Shown: in pieces, positions 29,929 through 58,703 of the stretch
How positions within the stretch are numbered: position 1 is the stretch's first letter
How the letters are laid out: each line of letters begins with the position of its first letter
Origin: an uncultured archaeon
GTDB lineage: Archaea; Asgardarchaeota; Lokiarchaeia; Sigyniarchaeales; SOKP01
DNA: 64,000 nt
Assembly: GCA_964388035.1 (NCBI GenBank)
Contig: CAYLZE010000014.1
Coordinates: 1 to 64,000, forward strand
Direction of reading: 5' to 3'
Notes under the pieces: generated by a model
Seen by the model: the letters and a program-made list of their open reading frames with translations, nothing else
Databases searched by the model: none
What the model was told of the DNA's origin: nothing
Program-made: the position numbers and the translations under genes

Positions 29929-31833
29929 GTGATACCTCTATTGAAAGAAATAGATCAAACAAATTTAACTAAGTATCAGAAAAAAGAATTAACGGCAGAA
30001 GAAGCCATTGAACGGTTTGTTCATCCGGGTGATAGAATTTTTATTCATTCGGGATGTGCAGAACCTTTAGATTTAACCCAGACATTGATCAATATGGGGG
30101 CGAGGTTACCCGATGTAGATATATTGCATTTTGTTAACTTATCCCATCAAGATTATTATAAAACTGCTGGAGAGGGACATTTTCGTCATAATACCTTTTT
30201 TATAGGAGATAATCTTAGAGAAGCTGTGAAAAAGGGAATGGCGGATTATACTCCCATGTTACTTTCTAACATCCCAAGATTATTTAAGCGGGGATTAATG
30301 CATTTAAAGACAGCGCTCATCCAAATAACGCCCCCTGATAAATATGGTTTCTGCTGCTATGGCACTAATATTGATATTTCAAAACCCATTGCTGAATCAG
30401 CCGAAAATATTGTGGCAGAGATAAATCCTAACATGCCTAGAACTCTAGGTGATTCTTTCATTCATATGGACAAGATTAACGCATACGTGAAAACCAATCA
30501 TAATATTATTGAATTCACTTACGACCCACCTTCGGAAGCAGCTAAAAAAATTGCCAAATTTGTGGCTTCTTTGATCGAAGATGAGTCTACTTTACAAATG
30601 GGAATTGGAACGATTCCAAATGCCTTAACCGAAGAATTATTAGGAAAAAAAAATTTAGGGATTCATAGTGAAGTACTTTCCGATGGAATTGTTGATCTGG
30701 TTGAAAAAGGGGTGGTGACTTGTGAAAAAAAGACGCTGCATCCGGGGAAAATTATTTGTTCTTTTATTATGGGAACCAGAAAGTTGTATGATTTTGTGGA
30801 TAACAATCCCATGCTCGAATTTCATTCAAGTGATTATTGCAATGATCCATCCATTATTAGCAAAAATGCAAAGCAAGTAGCTGTTAATGCTGCACTCACA
30901 GTAGACTTAACTGGTCAAGTGAATGCCGATTCACTAGGCGCTATATTTTATAGCGGGATTGGGGGGCAGGTTGATTTTGTGAGAGGTGCTAATCTTGCAG
31001 AAGATGGGAAACCTATCACGGTATTGCCCTCCACGGCCACTTTATCTAACGGAAAGGTTGTTTCTAGAATTGTTCCATATCTAGATCCTGGTTCTGGTGT
31101 CGTGATTACGAGGGGGGATGTTCATTATGTTGTTACAGAATGGGGTATTGCTAATCTTTTTGGTAAGAGCATCCGAGAAAGAGTGCTTCAAATGATTGGT
31201 ATCGCTCATCCCGACTTCAGAGAAGAATTATTAGAGTATGCAAAGAAGTGGAATTATGTCTATTCGGATCAGAAACTACCTAAATCGATTGATGGACGAA
31301 TCAGCATTTATCCTTCAAAATATGAATTTAAGATTACTCTAAAAAACGGAAAAACCGTAGAAATTCGACCTGTTAAACCCACCGATGAGAGAATGCTACA
31401 AGAATTACATTATTCCTTAGATAAAGAGGATAGATATTATCGCTTTTTTAGACCCGTTTTAAAATTCTCCCATGAAGTTATTCAACCCATTTGTAATATC
31501 GATTATTCTACAGACATGATACTGGTTGGGATTTTTTCTAAGGAAAATGAGAAAAAAATTATTGCAATGGGAGGATTTTTTAAAACAGAAAAACCTGCAA
31601 TAGCGGAATTAGCTTTTATCGTACATAAGCAATGGCGAGGAAATGGAATTTCTAAGATTTTTATTTCAGAATTAGTAAAGATAGCACGAGAGTTAAACTA
31701 TAAATCTTTTTCTGGTAACATACTTTTAGAGAATAGAGGAATGAATCACATCATCAATACATTGGGATATCCGATGACTTATAGAAAAATGGAAGCAGGA
31801 GTTCTTGAATTTATCATGGATATCTCAAAATAA
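29929..31833 (+). CDS. Acetyl-CoA hydrolase/CoA-transferase fused to C-terminal GNAT acetyltransferase
   Basis: TLQMGIG.IP, LGIHSE, SGIGGQVDFVRG, VVTEWGIA; GNAT part IRPVKPTD, YYRFF, ELAF.V...WRG.G. Confidence 0.92.
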   Translation: MIPLLKEIDQTNLTKYQKKELTAEEAIERFVHPGDRIFIHSGCAEPLDLTQTLINMGARLPDVDILHFVNLSHQDYYKTAGEGHFRHNTFFIGDNLREAVKKGMADYTPMLLSNIPRLFKRGLMHLKTALIQITPPDKYGFCCYGTNIDISKPIAESAENIVAEINPNMPRTLGDSFIHMDKINAYVKTNHNIIEFTYDPPSEAAKKIAKFVASLIEDESTLQMGIGTIPNALTEELLGKKNLGIHSEVLSDGIVDLVEKGVVTCEKKTLHPGKIICSFIMGTRKLYDFVDNNPMLEFHSSDYCNDPSIISKNAKQVAVNAALTVDLTGQVNADSLGAIFYSGIGGQVDFVRGANLAEDGKPITVLPSTATLSNGKVVSRIVPYLDPGSGVVITRGDVHYVVTEWGIANLFGKSIRERVLQMIGIAHPDFREELLEYAKKWNYVYSDQKLPKSIDGRISIYPSKYEFKITLKNGKTVEIRPVKPTDERMLQELHYSLDKEDRYYRFFRPVLKFSHEVIQPICNIDYSTDMILVGIFSKENEKKIIAMGGFFKTEKPAIAELAFIVHKQWRGNGISKIFISELVKIARELNYKSFSGNILLENRGMNHIINTLGYPMTYRKMEAGVLEFIMDISK

Positions 31834-31972
31834 TTTCATGAAAGAATTTAATCTGTTATTTCTAAAAAATTACTGCAAACTTATATTTTTTAACCAAAAG
31901 CTTTTGATGCATTAATATTTGATTTAATATCAAGCAAGACGTATTATAATATGTAATTATAAAAAGTAAGGA

Positions 31973-33943
31973 ATGAAAGGGAAGATAAAATTGGAACCTA
32001 TAGATCCTAAAGAAAAGTACTCTAACCTCTTGAATAAATATAGTAAAAAGAAGGTCTCTCTAGATAAAGCTATTAAAGGATACATTGATCCTGGTAACCG
32101 CATTTTTATTGATAGCGGGTGCTCAGAACCAATTGACCTAACAAAAAAGTTGATAGAATTAGGCCCAGAGCTCCCGGATGTAGAAATCTTGCATTTCTTA
32201 TCCTTGAGCGATTTGGACTACTATGAAACTGCGGGAGGAATTGAAGATCTATATAGACATAATGCATTTTTTATTGGAAAATCCCTTCGAAAATACATAA
32301 AAGCGGGTCAAGCGGATTATACCCCAATGCTTCTCTCAGAAATTCCTTGGTTATTTAAATTGGGTAAAATGCACCTTGATACTGCCCTTATTCAAGTTAG
32401 TCCGCCTGATAAATTTGGATTTTGCAGTTATGGCATCAATGTCGATATAGTAAAACCCATAGCTGAGTCTGCAGAACGCGTTGTGGCTGAAATTAACCCC
32501 AAAATGCCCAGAACATTAGGCGATTCATTCATTCACATGGATGATATTGATGTATTTGTCACGAGTGATCATGATATTATAGAATATAGTTATGGAGAAC
32601 CCGACGAGGTCTCCCATAAGATAGCAGAATACACCGCATCTTTGGTTGAGGATCAATCAACCATTCAGATGGGGATCGGTACAATCCCCAATGCGGTAAC
32701 TAAAGCCTTAGAGCAAAAAAAAGATTTAGGGGTGCATAGTGAAGTGTTTTCGGATGGGGTGGTAGACCTTGTAGAAAAGGGAGTAATAACGTGCAAGAAA
32801 AAGTCGATCCATAAAGGAAAAATCATCTGTTCTTTTGTTATGGGAACTAAAAGGTTGTACGACTTTTGTAATGAGAATCCCATGCTTGAATTCCACCCTT
32901 GCGAATATACAAATGACCCATTTATTATTAGTCAAAATAAAAAGCAAGTCGCAATTAATGCTGCTTTAACCGTGGATTTAACCGGGCAAGTAAATGCTGA
33001 TTCTTTGGGACCTCAATTTTATAGCGGGATCGGGGGACAAGTAGATTTTGTGAGGGGCGCAGGGCGAGCACCGGATGGTAAGCCTATCATGGTAATGCCC
33101 TCTACAGCTACTCTTAGTGATGGAAAAGTAGTTTCCAGAGTCGCACCATATTTGCAACCCGGTTCTGGTGTGGTAATTACGCGCGGAGATGTCCATTATG
33201 TTGTTACGGAGTGGGGAATAGCATATCTTTATGGAAAAAGCGTTAGGGAACGCGTGCTACAGATGATTAATATTGCACATCCTGATTTTCGAGAAGAACT
33301 CTTAGAGCATGCTAAAAAATGGAATTACGTGTATTCCGACCAAAAATTACCTAAATCAATCGAAGGACGTATTAGCATCTATCCCTTTCAATATGAAACT
33401 AACTTTAAATTAGAAAATAATGAAAAAATATTAATACGCCCAGTTAAGCCCACCGATGAAAGAATGCTGCAAGAATTGCATTATAGCTTGGATGAAAATG
33501 ATAGATATTATCGATTTTTCTCAATCGTACAGGATTTTCGACATAAAAAAATACAACCTTTGGTAAATATTGATTATTCCACGAACATGATATTAGTAGG
33601 AGTCCATTCCGAAGATTCAGAACAAAAGATTGTTGCTCTTGGTGCAGTTTTCAGCACGGCACAACCTTCTTTGGGAGAATTAGCTTTTATTACTGATAAA
33701 GAATGGCGGGGGATGGGTATTTCAAAATTCCTGTTAGATTACTTAGTAAAAATCGCACGAGAAATGAACTATAAAAAGTTAGGTGGTTCTATTTTAACCG
33801 AAAATAAAGCAATGTTGCACATTATTGACTCTGCAGGATATGATCTAATATTAAAAAAAATGGAAAGTGGGGTTTTCGAATTTCAAATTGATATAACCAA
33901 AGAGACACGTAAAGAAGAAAAAGCACCCTTTAGGGAGAATTAG
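31973..33943 (+). CDS. Second acetyl-CoA hydrolase/CoA-transferase-GNAT fusion (tandem paralog)
   Basis: Same motifs with long identical peptides. Confidence 0.92.
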   Translation: MKGKIKLEPIDPKEKYSNLLNKYSKKKVSLDKAIKGYIDPGNRIFIDSGCSEPIDLTKKLIELGPELPDVEILHFLSLSDLDYYETAGGIEDLYRHNAFFIGKSLRKYIKAGQADYTPMLLSEIPWLFKLGKMHLDTALIQVSPPDKFGFCSYGINVDIVKPIAESAERVVAEINPKMPRTLGDSFIHMDDIDVFVTSDHDIIEYSYGEPDEVSHKIAEYTASLVEDQSTIQMGIGTIPNAVTKALEQKKDLGVHSEVFSDGVVDLVEKGVITCKKKSIHKGKIICSFVMGTKRLYDFCNENPMLEFHPCEYTNDPFIISQNKKQVAINAALTVDLTGQVNADSLGPQFYSGIGGQVDFVRGAGRAPDGKPIMVMPSTATLSDGKVVSRVAPYLQPGSGVVITRGDVHYVVTEWGIAYLYGKSVRERVLQMINIAHPDFREELLEHAKKWNYVYSDQKLPKSIEGRISIYPFQYETNFKLENNEKILIRPVKPTDERMLQELHYSLDENDRYYRFFSIVQDFRHKKIQPLVNIDYSTNMILVGVHSEDSEQKIVALGAVFSTAQPSLGELAFITDKEWRGMGISKFLLDYLVKIAREMNYKKLGGSILTENKAMLHIIDSAGYDLILKKMESGVFEFQIDITKETRKEEKAPFREN

Positions 33944-34157: not shown

Positions 34158-35021
34158 ATAACACTCTTAATCACGGAATTTTATGAAAAATATAAGAAAG
34201 AAGGGTTAACTGGAGAGATTATAAAGGAATTTCAGGATATCATATGGGATTATTATAACAAGCAAGGACGCAAATTTCCATTTAGAGAAAAAATAAGCGA
34301 TTACAATGTCTTGATAAGTGAAATAATGCTCCAACAAACGCAAACTGGAGCAGTATCTGAAAAATTCATGAAATTCGTAAAAAAATTTCCTGATTTTCTC
34401 TCATTAGCCCAAGCACCATTGGATGAAGTCCTAAGAGCATGGCAAGGATTAGGATATAACCGAAGAGCAATTGCTTTAAAAAGTATCGCGGAAACAATTA
34501 TTAAAGAGTATAATGGAAAACTTCCTCGTTCTAAAGAAATTCTCATAAGTTTTCCTCAGGTTGGAGCAGCAACCGCATCATCTATACTCGCTTTTGCTTT
34601 TAATGAACCTACCATCTTTATAGAAACAAATATCAGGAGGGTGTATATGTATTTTTTCTTCACTCATCAAAATAACATTAATGATAAAATGATTTTACCC
34701 CTAGTAGAGAAAAGTTTAGACAAAACTAACCCAAGAAAATGGTATTATGCATTAATGGATTATGGGGTCATGTTAAAAAAAGCACATCCCGAATTAAATA
34801 AGAAAAGCACGCATTATAAGAAACAAAAATCTTTTAAAGGTTCTAATCGGGAAATTCGGGGAAAAATCTTAAAATTGTTGTTAAAAACCGCATCTTTTTC
34901 CAAATATCGTCTTATAAAAGAATTAAATTTCGATCAGGAAAGAATTGAGAGTGTATTGAATGATTTAGAAAAGGAAGGATTCATTAGGCAAGATCAAGAA
35001 TCCATTCATATAAGTAAGTAG
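34158..35021 (+). CDS. mutY: A/G-specific adenine glycosylase (MutY-like, HhH-GPD, no Fe-S cysteines)
   Basis: SEIMLQQTQ, W.GLGYNRRA, HhH PQVG..TA, ETNIRR; the conserved N-terminus F...IWDYY...GR.FPFR lies upstream of the tracked start, open to ATA 34158. Confidence 0.88.
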   Translation: MTLLITEFYEKYKKEGLTGEIIKEFQDIIWDYYNKQGRKFPFREKISDYNVLISEIMLQQTQTGAVSEKFMKFVKKFPDFLSLAQAPLDEVLRAWQGLGYNRRAIALKSIAETIIKEYNGKLPRSKEILISFPQVGAATASSILAFAFNEPTIFIETNIRRVYMYFFFTHQNNINDKMILPLVEKSLDKTNPRKWYYALMDYGVMLKKAHPELNKKSTHYKKQKSFKGSNREIRGKILKLLLKTASFSKYRLIKELNFDQERIESVLNDLEKEGFIRQDQESIHISK

Positions 35022-35274
35022 CAAACTTCCTTTTCAATTACGTAAAGATTAAGATTCGAGTAAATCTTAAAAGTTATCGAATAAAGACAGTAAATTTAAA
35101 GGATGATAAAATGCAATGTTTTGATAAATCTTTTGTTAAATTACTCAAAGAACAAAATTAGTCAGCATGATATCAGAGATTTAATTTAAAAAACAATATC
35201 AAAAAGGATAGAATTAATTATGAGTTATTTTATTATATTTTTAGAAAAGAAAAGGTTATAGAGAGTTCGGTAAA

Positions 35275-36174
35275 ATGTCAAATAGACCAATACTTCTGAA
35301 AAAAATGGAGGAAATATTAAAGTTAAGATCCCAATATTTTACCATTAGACAAATACAATATGAATTGAGAGAGATAAAATCGGAAGTTGATAGGCTAACA
35401 ATCGATGAATATGTGGAAATTTTGTTCTTGGAGAATAAAATAATCATGACGGATCATAGTGGAAAAATCATTTCCTTAATTGAAAAAAAGCTTCAAGAAT
35501 ATGAAAAACCCTTAAAAATTCTCCATGTGGAACACCAAGATCTCATCTCTGAAATTAAATCCGAATCTTCACAGCACTCGTTTAAAGAAGAAAAAGCTAC
35601 TAATTTAAATCTCGTGAAAATTAATTGTATTGATTTTTTTTACGCAATACTGAGAAGCCAATTTGATGATGATATTGCAAACAACGTGTTTGTAAAGATA
35701 TATGATATTATTGATAAGTTTGATTCAATCAAATTTTTCGCACCAAGTCATTATTCGCTACTAATATTTGAACAATTTTTTAATAAAAAGTCAAATATTA
35801 ATGTAGATCCAGAATCTTCTCGCAGAAATGAAATTATTGAGGAAGTTCTCAAAACAGAAGTTAATGTGTACCAATTAAAAGAAAAGGTAAAAGCGCTTTT
35901 CGATTTATTTTGTGGATTAAATTCTACGGGATATTTAAAGATGTTCATGATCAATCACAAGATTTTCGCTCACTTAAATAAAATGTTTTTTCAATCTACA
36001 AACCAGCAGAATATCCCTACCAATCCACCCCTTAAAAAAAAGTCCAAGTTAATTAAAAAAAAATATAATTTTATGAATAAAGAAATCACGGTTATTAAAA
36101 ATCAAGCAGAAATGAAATATAGTGATAAAACTCTATATTATACAATTTTAGATAAAATGATTGAAATTTTATAA
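35275..36174 (+). CDS. Hypothetical helical protein, co-oriented with the HEAT-repeat gene
   Basis: 299-aa ORF ending 37 bp before the next gene. Confidence 0.7.
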   Translation: MSNRPILLKKMEEILKLRSQYFTIRQIQYELREIKSEVDRLTIDEYVEILFLENKIIMTDHSGKIISLIEKKLQEYEKPLKILHVEHQDLISEIKSESSQHSFKEEKATNLNLVKINCIDFFYAILRSQFDDDIANNVFVKIYDIIDKFDSIKFFAPSHYSLLIFEQFFNKKSNINVDPESSRRNEIIEEVLKTEVNVYQLKEKVKALFDLFCGLNSTGYLKMFMINHKIFAHLNKMFFQSTNQQNIPTNPPLKKKSKLIKKKYNFMNKEITVIKNQAEMKYSDKTLYYTILDKMIEIL

Positions 36175-36211
36175 AATATCTTCTAACTAAATAGTCAGAG
36201 TTGAAGCCCTT

Positions 36212-37993
36212 TTGGAAAATAATTTAGATTCAATAAAAAAAGATATGAGAGCTGGAAATTACGCAAAGGCTTTAAATGAATTAATTTCCTTGATTAATGG
36301 TAGTTATCCCCCTAATATAGAAGAAATATTACAGGGGATCTTGGAAATTCAAGAAATGGAATTCCCTTTAACCTCGGAATATCTTCAGAAAATTAAACCT
36401 CTTATCGATGATTTTGATGAGAATATTCACGAATTAGCGATAAAAAACTATATTAAAACCATTAAAACTACTTCTCTACTTAACGAAGAGTTAGAATTCG
36501 TACTTTCAAAATTAAAATCTTTTGAGCCGATAATTAAAGAAGAAATGATTAATTATTTAATCGAAGTTTTTCCAAATTATCCCGAACGTGAAGAGGAAAT
36601 TTTAGGGGGATTAATCGAATGCCTCGGTGATGAGATATGGAATGTACGGATGAAAATTATAAAATTTCTCAATGATATCTTCATGAAAAAAATTGATTTA
36701 ATAATCAACTTTAAAAAGCAATTAGAAATTATCTTGGAAGAGAGCGATATTGACGTCTTGAGAGAAGGGCTTGAATTTTTATTAAAATTATATGATCAAA
36801 CCTATTCCATCGCAGATATTAGAAAAATAATTAAAAATATCTCAGAAAAAAATTGGATTGCCCAAGAAAAAATCTTATTTATCATAGGGAAGTTAGGTAT
36901 CAAACGAAAGGATTTAATCACTCCCATTAGAAACGATCTAATTAAGCTTTTAGATTACAATGATTATTTAGTAACTAAAAAAGCACAACAAATAATTGAA
37001 GAAATTATTGTACACAATGCAAATCTATTCGATGAAACTTTATTTTCTTATATTCGCAACGATACTATAGATAATCTTGGGGCCATCGAAACCCTGTTGA
37101 GTAATTCTATTATAAAGCACGGATTCATGCGCTTCTATAGCATTTTTAAACAAATAGCTAATGAAAAAGACCCATTATTTAAGATTTTTAACGCAATAGT
37201 AAACAAATTATTGGATCATAACTCTGAATTAATTTTAACGATGTTTAATGATCTAATTAATAAAATATTAAAAGATTTCAATGTAAATGATTATCTCAAG
37301 TTAGAAAGATTATTAATATTAAATCCTAACTATGATCTTTATAATCTCCTCCTAAAATCATTAAATGATAAAGGTCACTTAAAGGGAATAGAAGAAGAAA
37401 AAAGAAGAATTGATTTAATGAGTTTTTTATGGGAAAATATCCCAGAATTAGGATTTAAAAGAATAAGTTCCTGGCTTAACGGCGTAATAAAACACGATTC
37501 AATCGAAATTGAGGCAATCTGTGAAAAATTCAATCTCCAACACTCTTTAATTGTTGAAGTTATTAAGAAATTAGTGAAGAAAGGGTTGTTGAATGCGCAA
37601 ATACAAGATGATGTCATTATATCGGAAAAATTCTCCCCCAAACCAAAAGAAGATGTGATCTTCTCTAATAAGTGGCAAGTAATTCAAGAAAATGAAGATG
37701 ATGAGATAAAAATCAATGTCATTCTTAATCTTAGAAATAATTCGGGAAAACAAATCACAAATATAAGCTTTGATATCATCGATCCGTATCAAATACTAGT
37801 AGTACAAGAAGTAAAAAACCATTTTCCAGAGAATTTGAATCATAATCGAGAACTTTCAATCAATTGGATTTTAAGAAAATATTATGATATAAGTAATATG
37901 CCGCTAGCAACCATGATTCAAATATTAATATTTTATCAAATCAAGGGAAAGTTATTCTATAAAAAAGAAAACATGGATATACTTTTATTATAA
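36212..37993 (+). CDS. HEAT/ARM-repeat protein with winged-helix-like segment and C-terminal beta-sandwich (appendage-like) domain
   Basis: HEAT signatures (L.DEIWNVR, LE.SD.DV, LLD.ND.LV); I.IE.IC.KFNL....I..VIK.LV.KG.L.A.I; C-terminal V.LNL.N.SG..I.NI.F beta pattern. Confidence 0.65.
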   Translation: MENNLDSIKKDMRAGNYAKALNELISLINGSYPPNIEEILQGILEIQEMEFPLTSEYLQKIKPLIDDFDENIHELAIKNYIKTIKTTSLLNEELEFVLSKLKSFEPIIKEEMINYLIEVFPNYPEREEEILGGLIECLGDEIWNVRMKIIKFLNDIFMKKIDLIINFKKQLEIILEESDIDVLREGLEFLLKLYDQTYSIADIRKIIKNISEKNWIAQEKILFIIGKLGIKRKDLITPIRNDLIKLLDYNDYLVTKKAQQIIEEIIVHNANLFDETLFSYIRNDTIDNLGAIETLLSNSIIKHGFMRFYSIFKQIANEKDPLFKIFNAIVNKLLDHNSELILTMFNDLINKILKDFNVNDYLKLERLLILNPNYDLYNLLLKSLNDKGHLKGIEEEKRRIDLMSFLWENIPELGFKRISSWLNGVIKHDSIEIEAICEKFNLQHSLIVEVIKKLVKKGLLNAQIQDDVIISEKFSPKPKEDVIFSNKWQVIQENEDDEIKINVILNLRNNSGKQITNISFDIIDPYQILVVQEVKNHFPENLNHNRELSINWILRKYYDISNMPLATMIQILIFYQIKGKLFYKKENMDILLL

Positions 37994-38010
37994 TGTAATT
38001 TTTAGAGACT

Positions 38011-38575
38011 TTATTTAATACCTTCAAATATTAAAATCTGGTTTTCCTCGTTCTTCTTTATATCTTCTTCTCGAATTCAGTTATATGACCATTTTAATAA
38101 GATCTTTCATGATATAGGTACCATACCAAGGCATACCATAAGCTTCAGAATTATATTCACCACCTCGAGGAAGTCTGAACGCTCTTAAAAGGGAGAGTTC
38201 TTCAGCAACGTTTTTAACAAAAACATCTGAGCCATATATAGCAGCTATTTGTAAATAAAGCCGCAGCTTTTGAGTTCTAATCGAATTAATTAAATTATGA
38301 TGATAGAAATTTTTATTACGATAACAAACCGATCATGTCCTATTTGAAGTTCGCCTAAAGAATAAAATAAGGTTAAAATAACATCGGTGGTTTTGGAAAA
38401 GCCATACCCCCTTTAATACTTCTGGGTAATTAAAAGGAGTAAGAGTTAGCGCGTCTATAGCTAAGATTGCCAATTAAGGTTATAATTGCATTCTCTCCAA
38501 AACTGCTCTAGCTACCTTCTTTCTCGCTTGATAACAATCAGTTCCTGTTGCTGTTCCTACACTTGCGTCTAACAT
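38011..38575 (-). pseudogene. Collapsed relic: FIST-protein N-terminus joined to LuxC-like C-terminus
   Basis: MLDASVGTATGTDCYQARKKVARAVLERMQL*P*LAILAIDAL...FNYPEVLKG matches the 53770 N-terminus; NLINSIRTQKLRLYLQIAAIYGSDVFVKNVAEELSLL.AFRLPR.GE.N...GMPW.G.Y...DLIK matches the 56491 C-terminus. Confidence 0.9.
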
Positions 38576-38627
38576 TTAACCACTCTTTTATATTTAATAT
38601 TTTAATATTTTTAAAATTCTCACAAAA

Positions 38628-39218
38628 TTACATGCTATTAAGAAAATTTTGTATCATTCTTTGAAGACTTCCAAGAGTCGAGGATATCTCTTCTAATAGA
38701 GATTTAACTTTTTGAACAGATACGGTGTCCGAACCTATTTCTACTTCTTCTGAAGGTTGTTCTAATTCTGTTTCTACAACAGGAGAAGGTTCTAATGCTT
38801 CTGTTTCCATTTCTATAGATGATTCTACTGATTCTGGCTCTGATTTGGTGGAAACGCTTATTGGCTTTTTACTTGTCATGGGAACCGTATCAGCAATGGT
38901 ATCCAAGTCAATTTCACCTTCAAATTGTTCCAAAATATGTTGTTTATTAAGCGTGGGGAAATTTTCGGGTTCATTTCCCTCCTCAACAACCTCTATGCTG
39001 GCACCGTAAAGCTTTAAATTTGATTTTAGTTTTGTAGCAACAACTCCACCATGATACTTATCAAGCTTATCACTTTTCCCACCACTCCAAATCCACATTT
39101 TAGGTCTTTTTTTAGTTCTATCTACGATTATATATATACCTTCCGTAGTTAAAGCTGGATTATTCGTTCCTATTAATTTCTTCCCTTCTATCTTATATAA
39201 TGTTATCATTTTTTCCAT
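38628..39218 (-). CDS. Single-domain gelsolin-like protein with acidic linker and C-terminal amphipathic helix
   Basis: YIIVD...MWIWSG..S...K...G...A....IEVVEEGNEPENF gelsolin pattern; paralog of 53211-53726. Confidence 0.8.
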   Translation of the reverse strand: MEKMITLYKIEGKKLIGTNNPALTTEGIYIIVDRTKKRPKMWIWSGGKSDKLDKYHGGVVATKLKSNLKLYGASIEVVEEGNEPENFPTLNKQHILEQFEGEIDLDTIADTVPMTSKKPISVSTKSEPESVESSIEMETEALEPSPVVETELEQPSEEVEIGSDTVSVQKVKSLLEEISSTLGSLQRMIQNFLNSM

Positions 39219-39484
39219 CCTCTCTATTTCATTCTAAATTTTAAATCCATACAAGGATATTAAAAATTTTTTTCCAAATTAAATAATAGATTAAAATGTA
39301 TAAATAAATATTTTTGTTACTAATCAAGATTAATTCCTATTTTTATCTTTGAACGATTTTTTAGTATGACTAAAAAATTTTCATCTTATCCCTCAATATA
39401 ATCACACGAAAAAAGATATTAATTAGCTCTTATTCATCTTTTTCGATGTAATCCCATTTATATAGTCTTTATAAAAAAAAAAAT

Positions 39485-40783
39485 TCAACTAATAAACAAT
39501 TTTGAAGATTTAAGTGCAAATCTTTCATGCTTTTTCCATGAACCAAATAAGTCGCCATTAGATGTTAAAGTTTCTATCACTATTCTTAATTTTTTCTTGA
39601 TTCTTTGAGGAGAACTTTTAGCAAAGACTGTCTGAGGTAATGGCATAAAAGCATGAGCATGAATTTTTGCACCTTTTCTTACCAGATCTTTCATTACTTT
39701 AATAGATTGTGTCATATCTTCTTCAGTTTCATTTGGCAAACCAAATATAAAATCCACATAAGGTTTGAAATTTGACTCAATTATTAAATCAACAGCCTTA
39801 TATACATCATCAACATTATGGCCTCGATTACAATCGTCTAATACTTTTTGGCTTCCGGATTGTGCTCCTATAACTATGTTATCATTAGACGCGAATCTAG
39901 AAATTAATTGCATCGTAGCTTTATTTACATGATCGGGACGAACCTCAGTAGGAAAGGATCCGAAGAATAATCTGCCTTTAGGGGGCAAAATATCATCAAT
40001 AACGGTAAGAAGTTCTCCTATTTTATCTATATTAATCGTCTTACCATCAGAAGAACCATAAGATAATGCGCTCGGTGAGATAAATCTTATATATGTTGAT
40101 TCTTGAAATTGTTCTACCAACCATTGCACGTGTTCAACTATGGATTCAATACTGCGATGTCTTGGACGAGTTCCAAAAAGATGCGAAGTTTGGCAGAAAA
40201 AACAAGCATAGGGACATCCTCTTGTGATCTCTATTGAACCAAATCTTCGATACTGCTTTGTTGGAAATGAAGGATATTTATCTAGATTCATTGCTGGGCG
40301 CTTACCAGTAAATTGATACTCCCCATTTTCATCATTATAGGAAATTCCTTTAATATGCCTAATTTCTGAATTGTTTGCTAAATGGGCTATGAGTTCAACG
40401 AAAGATTCCTCACCTTCTCCGCTTATTACAATATTGAATCCTATCTTTAAAGTTCCCTCTGGGTCACCCGTAGGGTGGGGTCCTCCTGCGATAAGATAAA
40501 CTCTGCTTTTATAGACTTGCTTTATTCTTTTGACAAATCGTTTTATTTCAAAAAATTGAGAGGTGAAGAATGAAAAACAGATATAAATTCGTCTAAAATC
40601 AATTAATAATTGCCTTATTTTATTGATTATTTCCCATTCCGTTTTGAAAATAAAAATTGTAAAATCACTTCCTTTCAAAGATTCCTCTGTTTCTACAGCT
40701 CCTAATAATGCATTAAAACTATTCACGTTCATTTCATTATAATAAAGGATGATAGCGCATTCTTTAATGTTCAAGCAACTCAA
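39485..40783 (-). CDS. B12-binding domain radical SAM protein
   Basis: IAGGPHPT, GEGE, EITRGCPYACFFC (CxxxCxxC), GAQSGS, DFIFGLP.E. Confidence 0.92.
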   Translation of the reverse strand: MSCLNIKECAIILYYNEMNVNSFNALLGAVETEESLKGSDFTIFIFKTEWEIINKIRQLLIDFRRIYICFSFFTSQFFEIKRFVKRIKQVYKSRVYLIAGGPHPTGDPEGTLKIGFNIVISGEGEESFVELIAHLANNSEIRHIKGISYNDENGEYQFTGKRPAMNLDKYPSFPTKQYRRFGSIEITRGCPYACFFCQTSHLFGTRPRHRSIESIVEHVQWLVEQFQESTYIRFISPSALSYGSSDGKTINIDKIGELLTVIDDILPPKGRLFFGSFPTEVRPDHVNKATMQLISRFASNDNIVIGAQSGSQKVLDDCNRGHNVDDVYKAVDLIIESNFKPYVDFIFGLPNETEEDMTQSIKVMKDLVRKGAKIHAHAFMPLPQTVFAKSSPQRIKKKLRIVIETLTSNGDLFGSWKKHERFALKSSKLFIS

Positions 40784-48635: not shown

Positions 48636-49394
48636 TTACTCTCCCGGCTTTTGTCCCAAAGCATTAACAGAGCGTAAAAACAATCGCTTCATCCACCCGG
48701 GCAAAATAAAACCCCCATAAAATTCTATGGCACTCAGAATTAATATGGAACGGAAAATTACGAGAGTGATTGCATCTGTTGGAATGGTTGCATCTAAAAT
48801 TGCACCTATACAAAACGTGGGAGCAGCAAGGATGAGTAATTTCCCCTTCAATTTCGTCTCAGGATCCCCGATTTTTATTGTCTCTATTCCAAATTTTATC
48901 ACCGTGACAAATAAAATTACTATCATGAAGAATAAATATATGATCAAGACCGTGAGATTTCCTGAGGTGTCGACTGGCGAAATTTTATGCCCGATATAAC
49001 TGGGGTCCGTTATCAAAAAATAGAGGAATATAACATAAAAACCTAATGAAATGAGTGTCGTAATTGCCATGATTAGCTTTCGCTTTTCTTTATATAAAAA
49101 ATTGGTAAATGCAAGTAGCCACAATATTAAGGCGAGAGGGAGTAACAAAAAATTTAGAGCCATTATCGTTCCAAATGATAACCCTTCTCCACCCGTAAAC
49201 AAAGCAACGTAAAATGAGGCGGTCGTTCCATACCAACCTGAGACAAACAAACACCACGCTAAACCAACATAGATGAAATTCCGATTTTGATTTTTAAAAT
49301 ATTTCGATACTATTATGAGCCCTAAAATAATAGATAATCCAACCAATAATGTCCCAAATATACCATTGATGAAATCTAGTGTTGATAATACCAT
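48636..49394 (-). CDS. Seven-TM membrane protein
   Basis: Seven hydrophobic segments, C-terminal Y.GF.LP.W.K; 77 bp upstream of the longin-like gene. Confidence 0.75.
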   Translation of the reverse strand: MVLSTLDFINGIFGTLLVGLSIILGLIIVSKYFKNQNRNFIYVGLAWCLFVSGWYGTTASFYVALFTGGEGLSFGTIMALNFLLLPLALILWLLAFTNFLYKEKRKLIMAITTLISLGFYVIFLYFLITDPSYIGHKISPVDTSGNLTVLIIYLFFMIVILFVTVIKFGIETIKIGDPETKLKGKLLILAAPTFCIGAILDATIPTDAITLVIFRSILILSAIEFYGGFILPGWMKRLFLRSVNALGQKPGE

Positions 49395-49593: not shown

Positions 49594-51021
49594 TTATTTT
49601 TTATTTTTTAGGTTCGTGATTCTAGTCAATTTTTTCAAGGTATTAACACCTATTACCGCTTCTTCAATACTATGAAAAGCAGGTATATTGCTTAGTTCAA
49701 GAGCTTCAATGATGCTTCCATATTTTGGGATGTAGGGAATGAAACATACCAACGGCTTTCTTTCCAAAGTAACAGTGTTTGCAATCCTTCGTCCAATTTG
49801 GAACGTTATAGAGGGAGTATAAGGTAATATCAGGACAATAATGCATTCTATTCGTTCAATTCTAGATAAATATTGAATTAGTTTCTCCATATCTTCATCT
49901 TTTGCTGAGCCCGTGAGATCAATTGGGTTTCTAAAAGTGGCAATTTCTCTAGCTACGGGATTGACCAATTCGCTCATCTCATCTTGTTCTTTTTGAGTAA
50001 AGTCTATCGCAGATAAACCGTAATTTTTTAATAGATCAGCACAAATTACACCATGTCCTCCAGAAAGAGATAAAATGGCAACATTTCCATGAATAACGTT
50101 ATCGTGTTTAAATGGCTTCTTTTTGTGGGCTAATATATCTAACAACTTCAATTCAGTTAATAATTCAAGTTCCGTGAGGGGTTGCATGATTAAATATTGT
50201 TTCAACGCAGCTTCAAGCACTTTATCATTCCCCGAAAGACTTGCGGTATGAGATTGGGTTGCACTTTTTCCTTTCTCTGATAATCCACCAAAATATATAA
50301 TAACATTATCCTTCGATTCTTTTGCCAACCGTAGAAATTCTCTACTCTTAGAGGATTTAAAAGCCTCCAGGTAAAAGGCAATATTTTCTGTTTCCTTATC
50401 TCGCTTACTAAAATATTCTAAAAGCATGGTTTCATCTACCACGGCCCGATTCCCTATGGATACCGCCGTGGAGACGCCAATATGAATTTGATTAAATTTA
50501 TGAAAAAACTGGTCGACCAAGACACCTCCTGATTGACTGATTAATGCAACCGTGCCTTTGGGGGGGCGTGTTATCCGCTCGGTGGGCATAAAAATTGTAT
50601 CTAACAAGGGTGGTGAATACACTCCAATGCAATTAGGTCCAAGTACAGCAATATCATTGTCCGTTGCGATTTGAACAAGTTTTTCTTGTCTCTTTACCCC
50701 TTCACCCCCAATTTCAGCAAATCCTCCGCTAATAATGATGCATCCTGGAATATCATAATCAACACATTTTTGCACATATTCAAGCGTAGATTGAGCGGGA
50801 ATGGCTATTACCATGACATCCGGTTTTTTGGGTAAATCTTCCATGCTTGAATACAGCTCAACCCCTTCGATTTCACCCCCTTCTGGATGAATCCCATATA
50901 CCTCGACCTGCATCTCAAACACGTTCTTGATGAAAATAATTCTTCCGGGACTTAACGGGTTATGCTTGCTTATTCCCACGACCACCATGGTTTTTGGTTT
51001 AAAAAGCTTTTCTAAATCCAT
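49594..51021 (-). CDS. ADP-forming acyl-CoA synthetase alpha subunit-like (CoA-binding) protein
   Basis: LFKPK..VVG, IISGGFAE, LGPNCIG, ISQSGG, SIGN, SHTASL (phospho-His), NPIDLTG. Confidence 0.88.
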   Translation of the reverse strand: MDLEKLFKPKTMVVVGISKHNPLSPGRIIFIKNVFEMQVEVYGIHPEGGEIEGVELYSSMEDLPKKPDVMVIAIPAQSTLEYVQKCVDYDIPGCIIISGGFAEIGGEGVKRQEKLVQIATDNDIAVLGPNCIGVYSPPLLDTIFMPTERITRPPKGTVALISQSGGVLVDQFFHKFNQIHIGVSTAVSIGNRAVVDETMLLEYFSKRDKETENIAFYLEAFKSSKSREFLRLAKESKDNVIIYFGGLSEKGKSATQSHTASLSGNDKVLEAALKQYLIMQPLTELELLTELKLLDILAHKKKPFKHDNVIHGNVAILSLSGGHGVICADLLKNYGLSAIDFTQKEQDEMSELVNPVAREIATFRNPIDLTGSAKDEDMEKLIQYLSRIERIECIIVLILPYTPSITFQIGRRIANTVTLERKPLVCFIPYIPKYGSIIEALELSNIPAFHSIEEAVIGVNTLKKLTRITNLKNKK

Positions 51022-51228
51022 CTTTTTCCCATTCTTCTATTTTTCAAATCTATATGATCATTGTTATCTTAGATATATTTAGGCTTGTTCCTTATATTAT
51101 ATTAACCCTATTGATTATTGACAAAAATGGAAGCTGATCTTCAAAAAAAAGGAAATTGAATGTTCCCTTGCCCTACTTGACATGCTCTTATATTCTTCAT
51201 GCGTAAGATGCTTATTTTTCTATTTAAT

Positions 51229-51467
51229 GGGATCCATTATCATGGCAAATGAAGACTCTTCTCCTGCCTAAAGAGGATTATATAAAAAAGGACAGAGGTT
51301 CCATACCACTCCATAACAAAAAGGCCTTATGAGCCTCCTACATATAAATAATTAATATTGTTATTTTTAAAATATTTCAATGCAATCGTAATTTCTAAGC
51401 CAATGGATATTCCAACTACGAGAATCCCCAGAATGCAATTTAAAGAATCTAATGGAAGTAATATTAT
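51229..51467 (-). pseudogene. Relic of the N-terminal part of a 7-TM gene paralogous to 48636-49394
   Basis: IILLPLDSLNCILGILVVGISIGLEITIALKYFKNNNINYLYVGGS*GLFVMEWYGTSVLFY vs MVLSTLDFINGIFGTLLVGLSIILGLIIVSKYFKNQNRNFIYVGLAWCLFVSGWYGTTASFY. Confidence 0.85.
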
Positions 51468-51574
51468 TTCTATTTTATCCTTTTTTTTTGACGGGCACCA
51501 TAGCAAAAAATTTAAGGAACCCTTTTATTGCTAGTAAGTAAAATTCAATAAAACATTAACTATCTTCTGTCTAA

Positions 51575-51714
51575 TTTGCACCTTCGAATAGTGCAAAATT
51601 ATACTCAACTCACCAATTCATCGACTTAACGCGGACTGCGTATATTTAAATAATAAACATACTATTACTATTATAATAAAATAAAATACGCAATACTAAT
51701 TCACGAAAGTATTG
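51575..51714. promoter_or_regulatory. Promoter region of the Roadblock-lux cluster with two inverted repeats
   Basis: TTTGCAC-N9-GTGCAAA (51575-97) and CAATACT-N10-AGTATTG (51691-714) flank TATA-like AT tracts. Confidence 0.4.
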
Positions 51715-51780
51715 AGATTGACTGATAAACTATTAAGAGAGTGACTTATTATTTTATCAAATGACGAAACAGTTAAGATA

Positions 51781-52161
51781 TTGAAAGAAAAAATGATTGA
51801 ATTTGCCAACTCTCAAGATGGCGTAAAGGGTCAAATACTTATCACCTATCCAGATGGAGTTCCTATTGTCAATACATGGAGAGGTGAAATTGATCCGGTA
51901 TTGGTAGGTGCTCTTTCTGCTGCGGTAAAATTAACATTTAGATATCTTTGTCGAAAATTGAGAAAAGGAGACCTTAAACGGCTATATATGAATAGCGATT
52001 ATGGAAGAGTTATCATCCAAGATGCAGGAGAGAATGCGATATTAACAACAATAATAGAAAAATATGCTGATCTTTTTGGAATTGTATTTGGGGTAAGTAA
52101 TCTTTCTCTTGAATTAGAAAACTATTTACATGGATTTGTACTACGGGTGTCAGATGTTTGA
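51781..52161 (+). CDS. Roadblock/LC7 (MglB/LAMTOR-like) protein
   Basis: GV.GQILI..DGVPI, VGALSAA, L.KGDL..LY.NS.YGRVII..AGENAILT, DLFG.VF. Confidence 0.9.
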   Translation: MKEKMIEFANSQDGVKGQILITYPDGVPIVNTWRGEIDPVLVGALSAAVKLTFRYLCRKLRKGDLKRLYMNSDYGRVIIQDAGENAILTTIIEKYADLFGIVFGVSNLSLELENYLHGFVLRVSDV

Positions 52162-53171
52162 CAGAATCAAGTTTAGAAAAATATAATTTAGTTGGATATT
52201 TGCACGAAATTGAAAAAGTAACCGATCTTAATGGATGCTATTTCATCAATGTAGAAAATGATGTCGTAATCGAATCTACAATTCCTTTTAAGGTTCCTGA
52301 TGAAATATTATGGGAAATAGGTGTACTTAGGAGTACATTCAGACAATTTTCTCAAGGGATACAGCATGGAGGACTTAATGAACTCATGATTGAAGGAGAT
52401 AAAGGATATATATTATTATACGATATACCTCCCCACTTACTTTTGCTGGCCATGGGATCTGAAGAAATAAATCTATCTTATGTAAGATTAGCCATGATCG
52501 ATATTTTAGATCGCATCAGAACCGATATCGCTGAAATTGGAGATGCTATATTAAAAATCCCAGCAAAAGATTTTGGTGTCCTTGGAGAAAAAGATGAAAG
52601 AACACCCATACTTATCACTGCAACAGAGCCTGTACAAGTTGAAAATACTGCTATTATTTCTCCTATTGTTCCAGATATCGAGCCCCCTATCAAAACTGAG
52701 ATTGAATCTATTCGTGTAGAGCAAATCAATAAAGAAATCATTCAGCCTGAGATTAAAGTACCTGACATAACTCCAGTAAAACCGCGAGAAATAGAGCAAA
52801 TAGAGCTTAAACCAATCAAAGAACAACCTATTATTGTCGAAACTCCGAATATCAAAGCTAAAATGGCCATGTTGATGGATAAAATAAATTCAATCCAAGA
52901 TAAGAATGTTAAAGAGAAATATAAGACATTAGAAAGCATTTTTGAAGAAATTAAATCTCATTTACATTCTTTTTCAGGAGTAGAATTATATGAACTATTA
53001 GAGAGTTTAAAAGATGCGATATTATTAAATATTGGTACATCTCTTGCTCTTTTTGATATCTCAAAGGTAGCGCAAGAATATAAGAAAATCGAAAGTCTAA
53101 TCGAACCGAATGAATGTGATAAGATAATCAAAAGAATTAATACTTGGAAGGTAAGGATTATCAAAAATTAA
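52158..53171 (+). CDS. Roadblock-like N-terminal domain + Pro/Glu/Ile-rich linker + helical C-terminal domain
   Basis: HGGLNELMIEGDKGYILL..I...LLL...S..INL.YV.L.M; 4-bp overlap (TTGA) with the upstream gene. Confidence 0.8.
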   Translation: MTESSLEKYNLVGYLHEIEKVTDLNGCYFINVENDVVIESTIPFKVPDEILWEIGVLRSTFRQFSQGIQHGGLNELMIEGDKGYILLYDIPPHLLLLAMGSEEINLSYVRLAMIDILDRIRTDIAEIGDAILKIPAKDFGVLGEKDERTPILITATEPVQVENTAIISPIVPDIEPPIKTEIESIRVEQINKEIIQPEIKVPDITPVKPREIEQIELKPIKEQPIIVETPNIKAKMAMLMDKINSIQDKNVKEKYKTLESIFEEIKSHLHSFSGVELYELLESLKDAILLNIGTSLALFDISKVAQEYKKIESLIEPNECDKIIKRINTWKVRIIKN

Positions 53172-53210
53172 GTAAATTATTTCCATGACACATTTAAACG
53201 GTGAAAATGC

Positions 53211-53726
53211 TTGAGTTTAAGATTTTTTAAAGTAGAACGAACAGAAATTATTCCTATGGAAGATATTGCTCTTCAAGAAGATAAACTCTATATTATCCTT
53301 GATACACACTCCAAAAGATCAACGATATGGATATGGAGCGGTCCGAAATCGGATATGATGGACAGATATTATGCTGGTGTATTCGCGACTAAAATTAAAG
53401 CACAAAAGAAACTTTATGGGGCAAGTATTGAAGTTGTTCAAGGGGGAAATGAACCAGAGGAATTTCCTAAATTAGATCAATTACAATTGGTTACTCAAAT
53501 AGATGATAAATTTGAGGAACTGGTATTTAATCAAGTTAACTCAGAAGTAGAAAAAGAAATACAAGATACAGAAGCCACAAAATCTCGAGAGCCTCCCAAT
53601 GAAACAAAAGCAATCGGGAAATCTGAAATTCAACTTAAAAATCAGATCACCTCTTTACTTAATGAATTAATTATAGATATTGGAAAGATTCAAGAGAGAA
53701 TAAAGAATTTCTCAGACAAGTTATAA
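53211..53726 (+). CDS. Single-domain gelsolin-like protein
   Basis: LYIILD...TIWIWSGPKS..M.RY.A...A....IEVVQGGNEPEEF. Confidence 0.82.
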   Translation: MSLRFFKVERTEIIPMEDIALQEDKLYIILDTHSKRSTIWIWSGPKSDMMDRYYAGVFATKIKAQKKLYGASIEVVQGGNEPEEFPKLDQLQLVTQIDDKFEELVFNQVNSEVEKEIQDTEATKSREPPNETKAIGKSEIQLKNQITSLLNELIIDIGKIQERIKNFSDKL

Positions 53727-53769
53727 ATTAAAATACAAAAAATATATAAACAAAAGGTAAAAATTAAGA

Positions 53770-55086
53770 ATGATTGATGCAGGAGTAGGACTATCTATAG
53801 AAGATAATGGATATAAAGCCGGAAACTCAGTAGCAAAACAAGCAATGGAAGGGATGTCCATAAAACCAAAATTAGCAATTTTAGTGATTGATTCGTTATC
53901 CCGGGTTAAATATAATTATCAAGATGTACTAAATGGTGTAAGGGATGTTATTGGAGAAGATGTAATACTAATAGGGAGTACTGTTAATGGGATCCTAGTT
54001 AAAGATCGTTTTGCTCTGAAAAGTGTTGGATTAATGTTAATTGGGGGAGATTTTTCAATTGATTCTTCCTTTAATTATGGTCAATCTAGATTAAAATATA
54101 AAGAGATTGCAGAACAGGTTTACAATTTATCCACGAATTTTCCCCCGAATCAAGACCGTTTTCTTTTATTGTTTCAAGATGGAATGAAATTTCCACAAGA
54201 AGTGTTAGATAAGCAAGAATCCTTGAATAGTCGTGTAGTATCACTTTTATCGGGATTAGTTAACAGGTTTTTTAAAAAGCAACTTGAAGATTTTAAAGAA
54301 GATGGTTTAGGGATGCCCTCTGTTCAAGAATTCCTTGAACAATTTTATTCTAAAGGTTGGGAAAATATAGTAATTGGAAATATAGCAACAAACGTTCGGA
54401 ATCAAGATTCTGTGGAATTTTATAATGATAAGATTGTCGATGACAATATTATTGGAGTATTTTTATCTCCTTCTAATTCTACTAAATTCGGATTCGGATT
54501 TGCAGCTGGAGCAGAATCAACTGGGAAGAAATGTATTCCAACCAAGAACATTGGCAATTTTTTACTTAAAATTGATAATGAACCAGCTTTATTAGGACTC
54601 TGTAAAGCAGCTGGTATTCAAAAAGACTCTCTATATGAATTAAAAAGCTCATTCTATCTGAATTATCATACCATTTTAGGTAGAAAAGAATCAATAGGGG
54701 ATAAAGATTATATTCATTTAACAGCCACAATAACCAATCCTAATTTAGAAAGTCTTGTGAACACCGGATTTCCATTTGAACGAGTTCCTAAAGAAATTGA
54801 AATATATAGAAGTAATATGAACATTTTAACAAAAACTGCTGTAGATTCTGTGAATCAAGCTCTTGAAGGAATCTCAACCCCAAAATTTCTATTAGGATTT
54901 GATTGCGCGATACGCTTATTTGCATATGGTGATAATCTTCCCAAAATTGTGGAAGAAATAGATAATGTTGTTGGGAAAGATCTTCCAAAAATGATTGTTG
55001 GATCGGGAGGGGAAATCTATGGATCAAAGGATATGGATAACTATTTTAATAATATGACTTTTGTATCCTTAGCTGGTGGCGAATAA
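53770..55086 (+). CDS. FIST-domain protein (stand-alone)
   Basis: GVG.S......AG..VA..A, LIGST..G, IDNEPAL, FDCA.R, GEIYG, F.N.T.V.L. Confidence 0.8.
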   Translation: MIDAGVGLSIEDNGYKAGNSVAKQAMEGMSIKPKLAILVIDSLSRVKYNYQDVLNGVRDVIGEDVILIGSTVNGILVKDRFALKSVGLMLIGGDFSIDSSFNYGQSRLKYKEIAEQVYNLSTNFPPNQDRFLLLFQDGMKFPQEVLDKQESLNSRVVSLLSGLVNRFFKKQLEDFKEDGLGMPSVQEFLEQFYSKGWENIVIGNIATNVRNQDSVEFYNDKIVDDNIIGVFLSPSNSTKFGFGFAAGAESTGKKCIPTKNIGNFLLKIDNEPALLGLCKAAGIQKDSLYELKSSFYLNYHTILGRKESIGDKDYIHLTATITNPNLESLVNTGFPFERVPKEIEIYRSNMNILTKTAVDSVNQALEGISTPKFLLGFDCAIRLFAYGDNLPKIVEEIDNVVGKDLPKMIVGSGGEIYGSKDMDNYFNNMTFVSLAGGE

Positions 55087-55201
55087 TTTAAAGCTAATTT
55101 TAATTTTTTTAATATTCTTTTTGTAATATTTTCCTAAAACATAAATTAATAAATATGGATTATATTATTTTTATAATTGCAAGAAATTTAGCTGGATTTA
55201 C

Positions 55202-56386: not shown

Positions 56387-56490
56387 TATTTTTTTTTATT
56401 AACTTTTTTACTTTCAATTTTTTTTTTAATCTTTCAATATTATAAATTAGATCAAGTTTAAGTAATAAATAAGAAGGAGTCCTTTTTAAA

Positions 56491-58194: not shown

Positions 58195-58225
58195 ATTCAG
58201 TATAGTCTTGTATAGAAATTTCTAT

Positions 58226-58510
58226 TTATAAGAATAAAACATCTAATTTTTTGACAATTTTTTACGATTTTTCATTTTTTTCGTAGAGGAAAATAATATT
58301 AACATTACTTATTTTCGGATTAGAAGTATTAATTTGTTTTTTCTCAAAATTATATTTCAATATAAGATTTTCACTAGGTTTTAATGTTTCTGGGAGAATG
58401 CTTTGATCATCTTTATAGATGTTAAATAATTCTGATGGACAGTCCATCTCAATTTTTAAAATTCTAATATTATTTTCAGAAATATTTTGATTTTGAATAA
58501 ATAAATTATT
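58226..58510 (-). pseudogene. Relic of the C-terminal beta-sandwich domain of a paralog of the HEAT-repeat gene 36212-37993
   Basis: NISENNIRILKIEMDCP...LPETLKPSENLILKYNFEK.....NPKISNVNIIFLYEKNEKS*KIVKKLDVLFL* vs NNSGKQITNISFDIIDP...FPENLNHNRELSINWILRK.....MPLATMIQILIFYQIKGKLFYKKENMDILLL*. Confidence 0.75.
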
Positions 58511-58703
58511 GCTAAAACTTCGGTGCAGGAAGGAACGAAGATTCTTTTCTTTAATTTATTAAAATAAAGATCTTTCCAAGAGCATCCTTTGATTGAATTT
58601 CAAGGAAAAATAGAATTTCTCTCAATTCTTTAAATTTTAATCTTAGTTCTTACTACCGATCTAAAAAATATTAGGTATTATTTCATTATTTAAATTCATT
58701 CAC

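Follow-up and report, generated by a model that had tools for sequence, protein, structure and literature searches.

The window analysed here is a 64,000-nucleotide stretch of contig CAYLZE010000014.1 (C14 in our numbering; positions 1–64,000, assembly GCA_964388035.1), from an uncultured archaeon of the order Sigyniarchaeales (Asgardarchaeota; Lokiarchaeia). The archaeon's metagenome-assembled genome (MAG), G000 of genus g1, consists of 211 contigs. The window contains two complementary remains of a single type of gene cluster, in which LuxC and LuxE are linked with a FIST protein, a gelsolin-domain protein, a Roadblock protein and a HEAT-PCI protein. At site A (35275–39484; locus or copy A), the HEAT-PCI and gelsolin genes are intact and lie on either side of a FIST–LuxC pseudogene. 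At site B (51781–58522; locus or copy B), about 12 kb away, all of the other components are intact and are followed by a dead HEAT-PCI tail. We consider it probable that copy A is the resident copy, and that copy B is a later, horizontally acquired copy whose arrival was followed by complementary gene losses.

Two genomic regions serve as the main points of comparison: (i) R, the closest relative found, a 29 kb Logan metagenome contig (SRR21285597) retrieved with HEAT-PCI A as the query against 5.8 billion proteins, and (ii) the corresponding region of G001, a congener of G000 (genus g1) with a 96% complete genome.

A FIST–LuxC pseudogene at site A

The region between HEAT-PCI A and gelsolin A contains no long open reading frame (ORF), and its minus strand is homologous to two locus-B genes (Table 1). 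In a tblastn search of the whole window, the locus-B FIST protein (gene start 53770) aligns with positions 38575–38405 over amino acids 1–57 (44% identity, E = 1e-9), and the locus-B LuxC protein (gene start 56491) aligns with 38299–38087 on the minus strand over amino acids 469–539 (59% identity, E = 2e-21). Family profiles built from 14–17 relatives (14 for FIST) detect both pieces. The FIST profile matches with E = 6e-17, and the LuxC profile (E = 8e-29) extends the LuxC relic over two frameshifts, adding profile positions 448–468 (38361–38299) and 535–563 (38100–38014). The LuxC relic is 67% identical to the 3' end of R luxC at the amino acid level, and 67% at the nucleotide level over 331 nt.

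Both pieces are degraded. The FIST relic begins with ATG and is interrupted by two TAA stops, at codon 32 (38482–38480), where most relatives have a conserved lysine, and at codon 34 (38476–38474), where the lysine is invariant. The internal stop of the LuxC relic lies in the 38100–38014 segment. In total, there are five disabling lesions (three in-frame stops and two frameshifts) in 565 bp. Constraint is also relaxed: in a 71-amino-acid stretch of LuxC with 22 columns invariant in 17 relatives, the relic has changed at 7 columns, compared with 0–3 in each intact relative (leave-one-out counts). The FIST relic has changed at 2 of 10 invariant residues. Only residues 1–57 of what should be complete FIST_N and FIST_C domains (PF08495/PF10442) are present, and the LuxC piece, which is missing its first ~447 residues and hence a complete reductase domain (PF05893), cannot be an enzyme. 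Homology, lesions and relaxed constraint together confirm that 38011–38575 is a pseudogene remnant of FIST and LuxC.

The FIST and LuxC pieces are joined by 43 nt that match neither gene. With deletion sizes computed from the gene coordinates of the intact cluster in R, these 43 bp stand in place of 4,023 bp, from FIST amino acid 58 to LuxC amino acid 447 and including all of luxE; a profile search of the relic region found no trace of LuxE. The relic ends tail to tail with HEAT-PCI A, the two stop codons lying 17 bp apart. A first-pass annotation, made from the sequence, had read this region as the first ~55 residues of FIST with two stops, fused to the last ~110 residues of LuxC by a deletion of about 4 kb that removed luxE, and lying tail to tail with an intact HEAT gene. 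Our searches bear this out in every part, including the significance of both tblastn alignments, and add the two frameshifts and third stop in LuxC. A second deletion lies upstream of gelsolin A, where a profile search of 39200–39500 recovered no Roadblock or unk336 relics.

By a hand calculation, neutral decay at the lesion density of the relic would give gelsolin A ~5 lesions, unk299 ~8 and HEAT-PCI A ~16. All three are free of lesions, and therefore these genes were under selection while the relic decayed.

A HEAT-PCI tail at site B

Locus B contains the only intact FIST, the only intact LuxC and the only cluster-type LuxE gene of G000. (Two distant LuxE-like genes, 24–27% identical and located at G000:C49:16742-25129, are unrelated to the cluster.) A HEAT-PCI relic lies 31 bp beyond the luxC B stop. 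It is recognized by the HEAT-PCI profile (E = 2e-23) and is 42% identical to the HEAT-PCI protein of G008 and 47% to that of G282; the HEAT-PCI A sequence alone fails to detect it. According to the structural model of HEAT-PCI A, the relic corresponds to the C-terminal beta-sandwich. Because this dead tail sits behind luxC B, both copies once had a convergent HEAT-PCI gene, at least in part. HEAT-PCI A gives the single genomic match in G000, and is thus the sole intact copy. Searches for further cluster relics in 35000–35300, 51000–51800 and 58500–58720 found none.

The first-pass annotation had described the loss as reciprocal. The relics at both sites uphold this, with the reservation that the HEAT-PCI gene of copy B may have arrived truncated. 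In that case, the imported segment ended inside HEAT-PCI, decay was confined to copy A, and the genome could at no time have done without its resident HEAT-PCI. We regard this one-sided course of events as possible, though rather unlikely. In its favor, only the 3' 294 bp of the gene remain, with a single stop and no frameshift, and they adjoin the right-hand edge of the insertion, where native Maf is 180 bp away. However, nothing separates a truncated arrival from a later 5' deletion of the same gene, and the low GC content of the relic (0.21), together with its in-frame stop, shows decay but does not date its onset.

The ancestral cluster

FIST turned up in 12 of the 41 relatives whose whole genomes were searched. 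Of 400 genomes sampled from the phylum, 17 have HEAT-PCI, and these 17 fall within two families of one order. The named records of genomes that carry the cluster are Promethearchaeota (Asgard) MAGs. Where contigs allow the order to be read, it is Roadblock, unk337, gelsolin, FIST, LuxE and LuxC, with HEAT-PCI convergent on LuxC; at least 12 genomes from ~9 genera have this order, each time as a single copy. The genes form one such cluster in 15 related Promethearchaeota assemblies other than G000. The arrangement gelsolin–FIST–LuxE–LuxC with convergent HEAT-PCI is ancestral. Since HEAT-PCI is found convergent in the same order across relatives, it is part of the conserved unit. The proposal of the first-pass annotation that this order is old and existed twice in the present genome is well founded, given the order in relatives and the HEAT-PCI relic at site B.

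Two genomes show variant arrangements. In G035 (contig C117, locus L020) the cluster is permuted: LuxC and HEAT-PCI share a strand, and Roadblock, an unknown gene, gelsolin and FIST come after them; the contig is short and showed no LuxE. G037 has two convergent LuxC/HEAT-PCI pairs, on contigs C684 (L053) and C730 (L019), the latter in a cluster without a gelsolin gene. G037 was considered as a genome with both loci intact and rejected: its C684 copy is nearly sister to that of G281, which belongs to another family, so that bin contamination or a recent transfer is its probable origin. The search for relatives with both loci intact, as envisaged in the first pass, thus came up empty; no other sampled genome holds two native copies.

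Site A holds the cluster in R and site B does not

In R, the whole cluster lies exactly at site A, and site B is without it. The gene order is HhH-GPD, unk306 and HEAT-PCI, then convergent LuxC, LuxE, FIST, gelsolin, unk336 and Roadblock, then radical SAM. Beyond radical SAM, R is collinear with the window for ~8 kb, and continues with a seven-transmembrane (7-TM) gene, a succinyl-CoA-ligase-like gene, a Na/Ca-exchanger gene (Na_Ca_ex) and Maf. The flanking genes of R are 75% (HhH-GPD), 61% (radical SAM) and 62–83% (downstream genes) identical to those of the window.

G001 is collinear with the window over 27.5–60.9 kb and lacks both loci. Only 92 bp separate its HhH-GPD and radical-SAM genes, and a Na/Ca-exchanger-like gene lies between its 7-TM gene and Maf. 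Hence, site B holds a Na/Ca-exchanger gene in both R and G001. A genome search of G001 found no FIST, no HEAT-PCI and no close gelsolin, and no cluster relics were detected at its two empty sites. Given that site B is empty of the cluster in both relatives, copy B is probably the later arrival.

Copies A and B are not duplicates of each other

In a tree of the concatenated gelsolin, FIST, LuxE, LuxC and HEAT-PCI sequences, copy A is sister to R (100*) and copy B is sister to G008 of genus g8 (95*). Locus B and G008 are 68–74% identical (71–74% for the enzyme genes), and the B enzymes fall in one group with those of G008 and G022 (99*). Approximately unbiased (AU) tests reject a clade of A and B (p = 3e-4 without R, 5e-50 with R) and a clade of A, R and B (5e-64). 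At the DNA level, A and B are 66–69% identical over at most 253 nt, a match so low that recent conversion and repeat-driven misassembly are excluded. These trees indicate that the two copies are xenologs. The first-pass annotation had called them well-diverged paralogs: the divergence is real (the gelsolins, both of which were retained as it noted, are 35–39% identical), and the paralogy falls with the rejected A and B clade.

Three further histories were weighed against these results. The first reverses the polarity, so that B would have descended vertically and A, which R also has, would be the immigrant. This would suit the RpoB results given below, the clean 92-bp gap at site A in G001, and the transfer of the cluster between genera that is evident elsewhere. 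It is made improbable by the fact that site B is empty in both nearest relatives and site A is common to R: as a vertical copy, B would need two independent, precise losses. The second history, implicit in the first-pass annotation, is an old duplication within the lineage, in which true paralogs diverged for a long time and were then reciprocally lost. The copies do lie 12 kb apart in inverted orientation on a single contig, and the proteins that they encode differ strongly; however, quite apart from the rejected clades, B falls within a starred clade together with G008 and G022, R and G001 have no cluster at site B even though the intervening ~10 kb are collinear, and no second genome has been sampled with two native copies. 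This makes an old duplication very improbable. Lastly, that an assembly chimera or bin contamination joined two organisms, which might be feared of a MAG in so many pieces, can hardly be credited: both loci lie within ~33 kb that are collinear with G001 and R on both sides, A and B share no stretch alike enough to mislead an assembler, and it is within the pieces, not at a junction, that the stops, frameshifts and changed invariant residues are found.

Proposed history

We propose the following course of events, with copy A as the resident and copy B as the immigrant. Copy A, consisting of seven genes (Roadblock, unk336, gelsolin, FIST, LuxE, LuxC and convergent HEAT-PCI), would have been inherited between the HhH-GPD and radical-SAM genes from a common ancestor with R. 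A divergent, g8-type copy B would then have integrated 12 kb away by horizontal transfer, at the position of a Na/Ca-exchanger gene. With all components duplicated, complementary losses could follow. In copy A, one deletion of ~4.0 kb removed FIST–LuxE–LuxC and another of ~1.4 kb removed Roadblock–unk336. Stops and frameshifts would later have built up in the remaining stumps, along with changes at invariant residues. Of its HEAT-PCI gene, copy B has only the dead tail. The present system would thus be a chimera working in trans, in which HEAT-PCI, gelsolin A and unk299 are resident and the Roadblock pair, gelsolin B, FIST, LuxE and LuxC are immigrant.

Copy B shows two marks of horizontal transfer: its phylogeny is incongruent, and R and G001 have no cluster at the syntenic site. 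Several observations weigh against the proposed history. Firstly, compositional anomaly and mobile-element hallmarks are missing from B: its GC content is ordinary (0.32–0.35, compared with 0.334 for the genome), and no integrase, repeat or tRNA marks its borders, although no dedicated search for integrases, terminal repeats or tRNAs was made. Neither a Na/Ca-exchanger relic nor a G008-like donor flank was detected at the borders. Secondly, the RpoB tree sets g1 away from g8 and yet does not reject a g1 and g8 grouping (AU p = 0.13 for protein, 0.09 for DNA), so that the foreign status of B rests mainly on the empty site B and the cluster trees. Thirdly, the FIST relic is only 47% identical to R FIST and 58–63% identical to the types of genera g4, g7 and g11. 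A replacement of R's own enzyme block would explain but does not prove this, and pieces as short as these relics do not permit a fine placement in trees. Fourthly, both loci are absent from G001, so that the cluster may have been either gained or lost within genus g1. Finally, the estimated contamination of the G000 bin is 7.3%.

Two observations were made around site B. A relic of the 7-TM gene at 48636–49394, covering its N-terminal 73 residues (48% identity, and 55% to the gene of R), occupies 51249–51467 on the minus strand, in the interval from the succinyl-CoA-ligase-like gene to locus B; R has no such relic. The ortholog of the site-B Na/Ca exchanger of R and G001 is missing from G000.

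Apparent exchange of the enzyme block in other genomes

The enzyme block and HEAT-PCI have conflicting histories in two other cases. In R, FIST–LuxE–LuxC are 68–78% identical to those of G282 in genus g3 (L098 versus L062; grouping 100*). The R HEAT-PCI protein is only 36% identical to that of G282, and groups with genus g7; each alternative placement is rejected (AU p = 8e-10 and 1e-4). In G177, FIST and LuxE are 91% and 88% identical to those of G194 in genus g11 (L060 versus L059). The HEAT-PCI protein of G177 groups with that of its congener G018, and a tree in which the g7 enzymes are monophyletic is rejected (p = 1e-7). It thus seems that the enzyme block has repeatedly been replaced while the resident HEAT-PCI was retained; in G000, the debris is still in place.

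Two related observations are that the gelsolin of R, like its HEAT-PCI, follows a history other than that of the enzyme block, and that different genera share the FIST–LuxE(–LuxC) block at 73–91% identity (G177 with G194; for R with G282, 68–78%) where their HEAT-PCI genes have a history of their own, indicating modular exchange inside the cluster.

A speculative extension, which we think unlikely, is that the cluster consists of two modules: FIST–LuxE–LuxC, a block of enzymes and sensor freely exchanged between genera, and HEAT-PCI plus gelsolin, a host-bound adaptor module. If so, the adaptor module would stay with its lineage in order to fit host-specific partners, such as the actin cytoskeleton, and G000 would have been caught midway, its resident HEAT-PCI and gelsolin kept and its enzyme block replaced in trans. 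Both gelsolins might then have been kept because each is matched to a different set of partners, with gelsolin physically bridging the two modules.

The retained genes

The HEAT-PCI A protein (593 amino acids) is 60% identical to its R ortholog; the next best matches in the 5.8-billion-protein search are 40–43% identical. It retains 22 of 29 invariant positions, with mostly conservative changes, and has a Pfam PCI match of 24.7 bits (cut-off 22). An AlphaFold2 (AF2) model (pLDDT 86) predicts an alpha-solenoid (~1–426), a winged helix/PCI domain (~430–471) and a C-terminal beta-sandwich (~482–592), with 23 stacked helices in addition to the winged helix, as in PCI/HEAT-type solenoids. Foldseek matches are to solenoid proteins (gamma-COP, Integrator, importins), with low TM-scores.

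Gelsolin A retains 21 of 22 family-invariant residues, and is 56–60% identical to R gelsolin. Pfam returned no match for gelsolin A alone, and scored gelsolin B at 20.2 (cut-off 21). The gelsolin family profile matches Thor 2DGel3 (7c2h; E = 5e-12), CapG (1.5e-7) and gelsolin (5e-6). The model of gelsolin A has a gelsolin fold (pLDDT ~90 over residues 1–100), with Thorarchaeota ProGel as its best match (7c2f_B; TMt 0.79, rmsd 1.8 Å), followed by many gelsolin, CapG and adseverin domains. As modeled, gelsolin A contains a genuine gelsolin domain. A third, distant gelsolin paralog (29–33% identity) lies beside a Na/Ca-exchanger paralog elsewhere in the genome (G000:C7:79804-81537, minus strand).

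The unk299 gene, upstream of HEAT-PCI A, has an ortholog at the same position in R (58.5% identical). It is specific to the G000/R lineage, and is missing from G001 along with the rest of locus A. It has no Pfam match and no paralog elsewhere in G000, and the HEAT-PCI genes of other genera have no unk299 homolog beside them; an atlas search gave sub-threshold leads only. No conserved gene upstream of HEAT-PCI was found in other genera, and a likeness between 35275–36174 and the DNA behind luxC B is unsupported (best E = 0.18).

HEAT-PCI A, gelsolin A and unk299 diverge from outgroups no faster than their R orthologs. The low GC content of HEAT-PCI A and unk299 was considered as a sign of foreign origin and rejected, because the R orthologs share it. 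Further upstream, at 29929–33943 (plus strand), the window contains two acetyl-CoA hydrolase/transferase genes in tandem, of which the second carries a GNAT tail; in G001 there is one gene at this place.

Table 1. Features of sites A and B in the window.
Feature	Position	Strand	State and remarks
unk299	35275–36174	+	Intact ORF upstream of HEAT-PCI A; part of the site-A segment
HEAT-PCI A	36212–37993	+	Intact, 593 aa; stop codon 37991–37993
LuxC relic	38011–38361	-	Last ~115 aa (profile 448–563); two frameshifts, one internal stop, terminal TAA 38013–38011
Deletion junction	38362–38404	-	43 nt matching neither FIST nor LuxC
FIST relic	38405–38575	-	aa 1–57 with ATG; TAA at codons 32 and 34
Gelsolin A	38628–39218	-	Intact; predicted gelsolin domain 1–100, acidic disordered linker, conserved C-terminal helix 168–195
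Spacer	39219–39484		R has unk336 and Roadblock here, ~1.4 kb, deleted in G000
B12-binding radical-SAM gene	39485–40783	-	Intact, beyond gelsolin A
Roadblock B	51781–52161	+	Intact
unk337	52158–53171	+	Intact
Gelsolin B	53211–53726	+	Intact
FIST B	53770–55086	+	Intact
LuxE B	55202–56386	+	Intact
LuxC B	56491–58194	+	Intact
HEAT-PCI relic B	58229–58522	-	C-terminal ~95 aa, one in-frame stop; convergent on luxC B

Comparison with known systems

Individual components of the cluster resemble known proteins. Gelsolin A shares a single gelsolin/cofilin domain with the Asgard mini-gelsolin ProGel (Akil et al. 2020, PMC7444086), and its arrangement of one domain plus a C-terminal helix recalls, by analogy, that of 1DGelX from the same study. 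Unlike ProGel and 1DGelX, the gelsolins described here are embedded in a Lux/FIST cluster. HEAT-PCI A is predicted to share its combination of solenoid, winged helix and beta-sandwich with gamma-COP, adaptor protein (AP) complexes and PCI scaffold proteins. The top match is gamma-COP (5a1u_E), at TM-scores of 0.2–0.3, a range in which solenoids match generically, and there is no sign of a coat or lid function. The locus-B LuxC and LuxE proteins match the LuxC–LuxE pair of the bacterial lux system (PF05893 and PF04443; E = 7e-78 and 2e-47). Unlike bacterial lux, the Asgard cluster is without luciferase or LuxD, and is linked to FIST, Roadblock, gelsolin and HEAT-PCI. A literature search found no description of a FIST/Roadblock/gelsolin/HEAT-PCI linkage with LuxC–LuxE.

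Taken with R and G177, G000 shows that the cluster has been repeatedly transferred and recombined between genera. The window amounts to a natural complementation experiment, in which one intact copy of each component except gelsolin is drawn from two sources. From within one genome, it argues strongly for HEAT-PCI as a component of the system despite its convergent transcription. If the retained genes do work together, HEAT-PCI would act in trans from 12 kb away, and would be compatible with immigrant enzymes even though it is only ~36% identical to the immigrant type's own HEAT-PCI.

Two established concepts come close to this history. In reciprocal gene loss after duplication, the redundancy of a second copy is resolved by the loss of different members from each copy; in xenologous gene displacement, a foreign ortholog takes over from the resident one. 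The case described here differs from both in that it concerns a whole cluster of seven genes, with a second copy that is, by its phylogeny, a xenolog and no duplicate. The outcome would be a chimera spread over two sites, with both relics still readable and the gelsolin gene present in duplicate.

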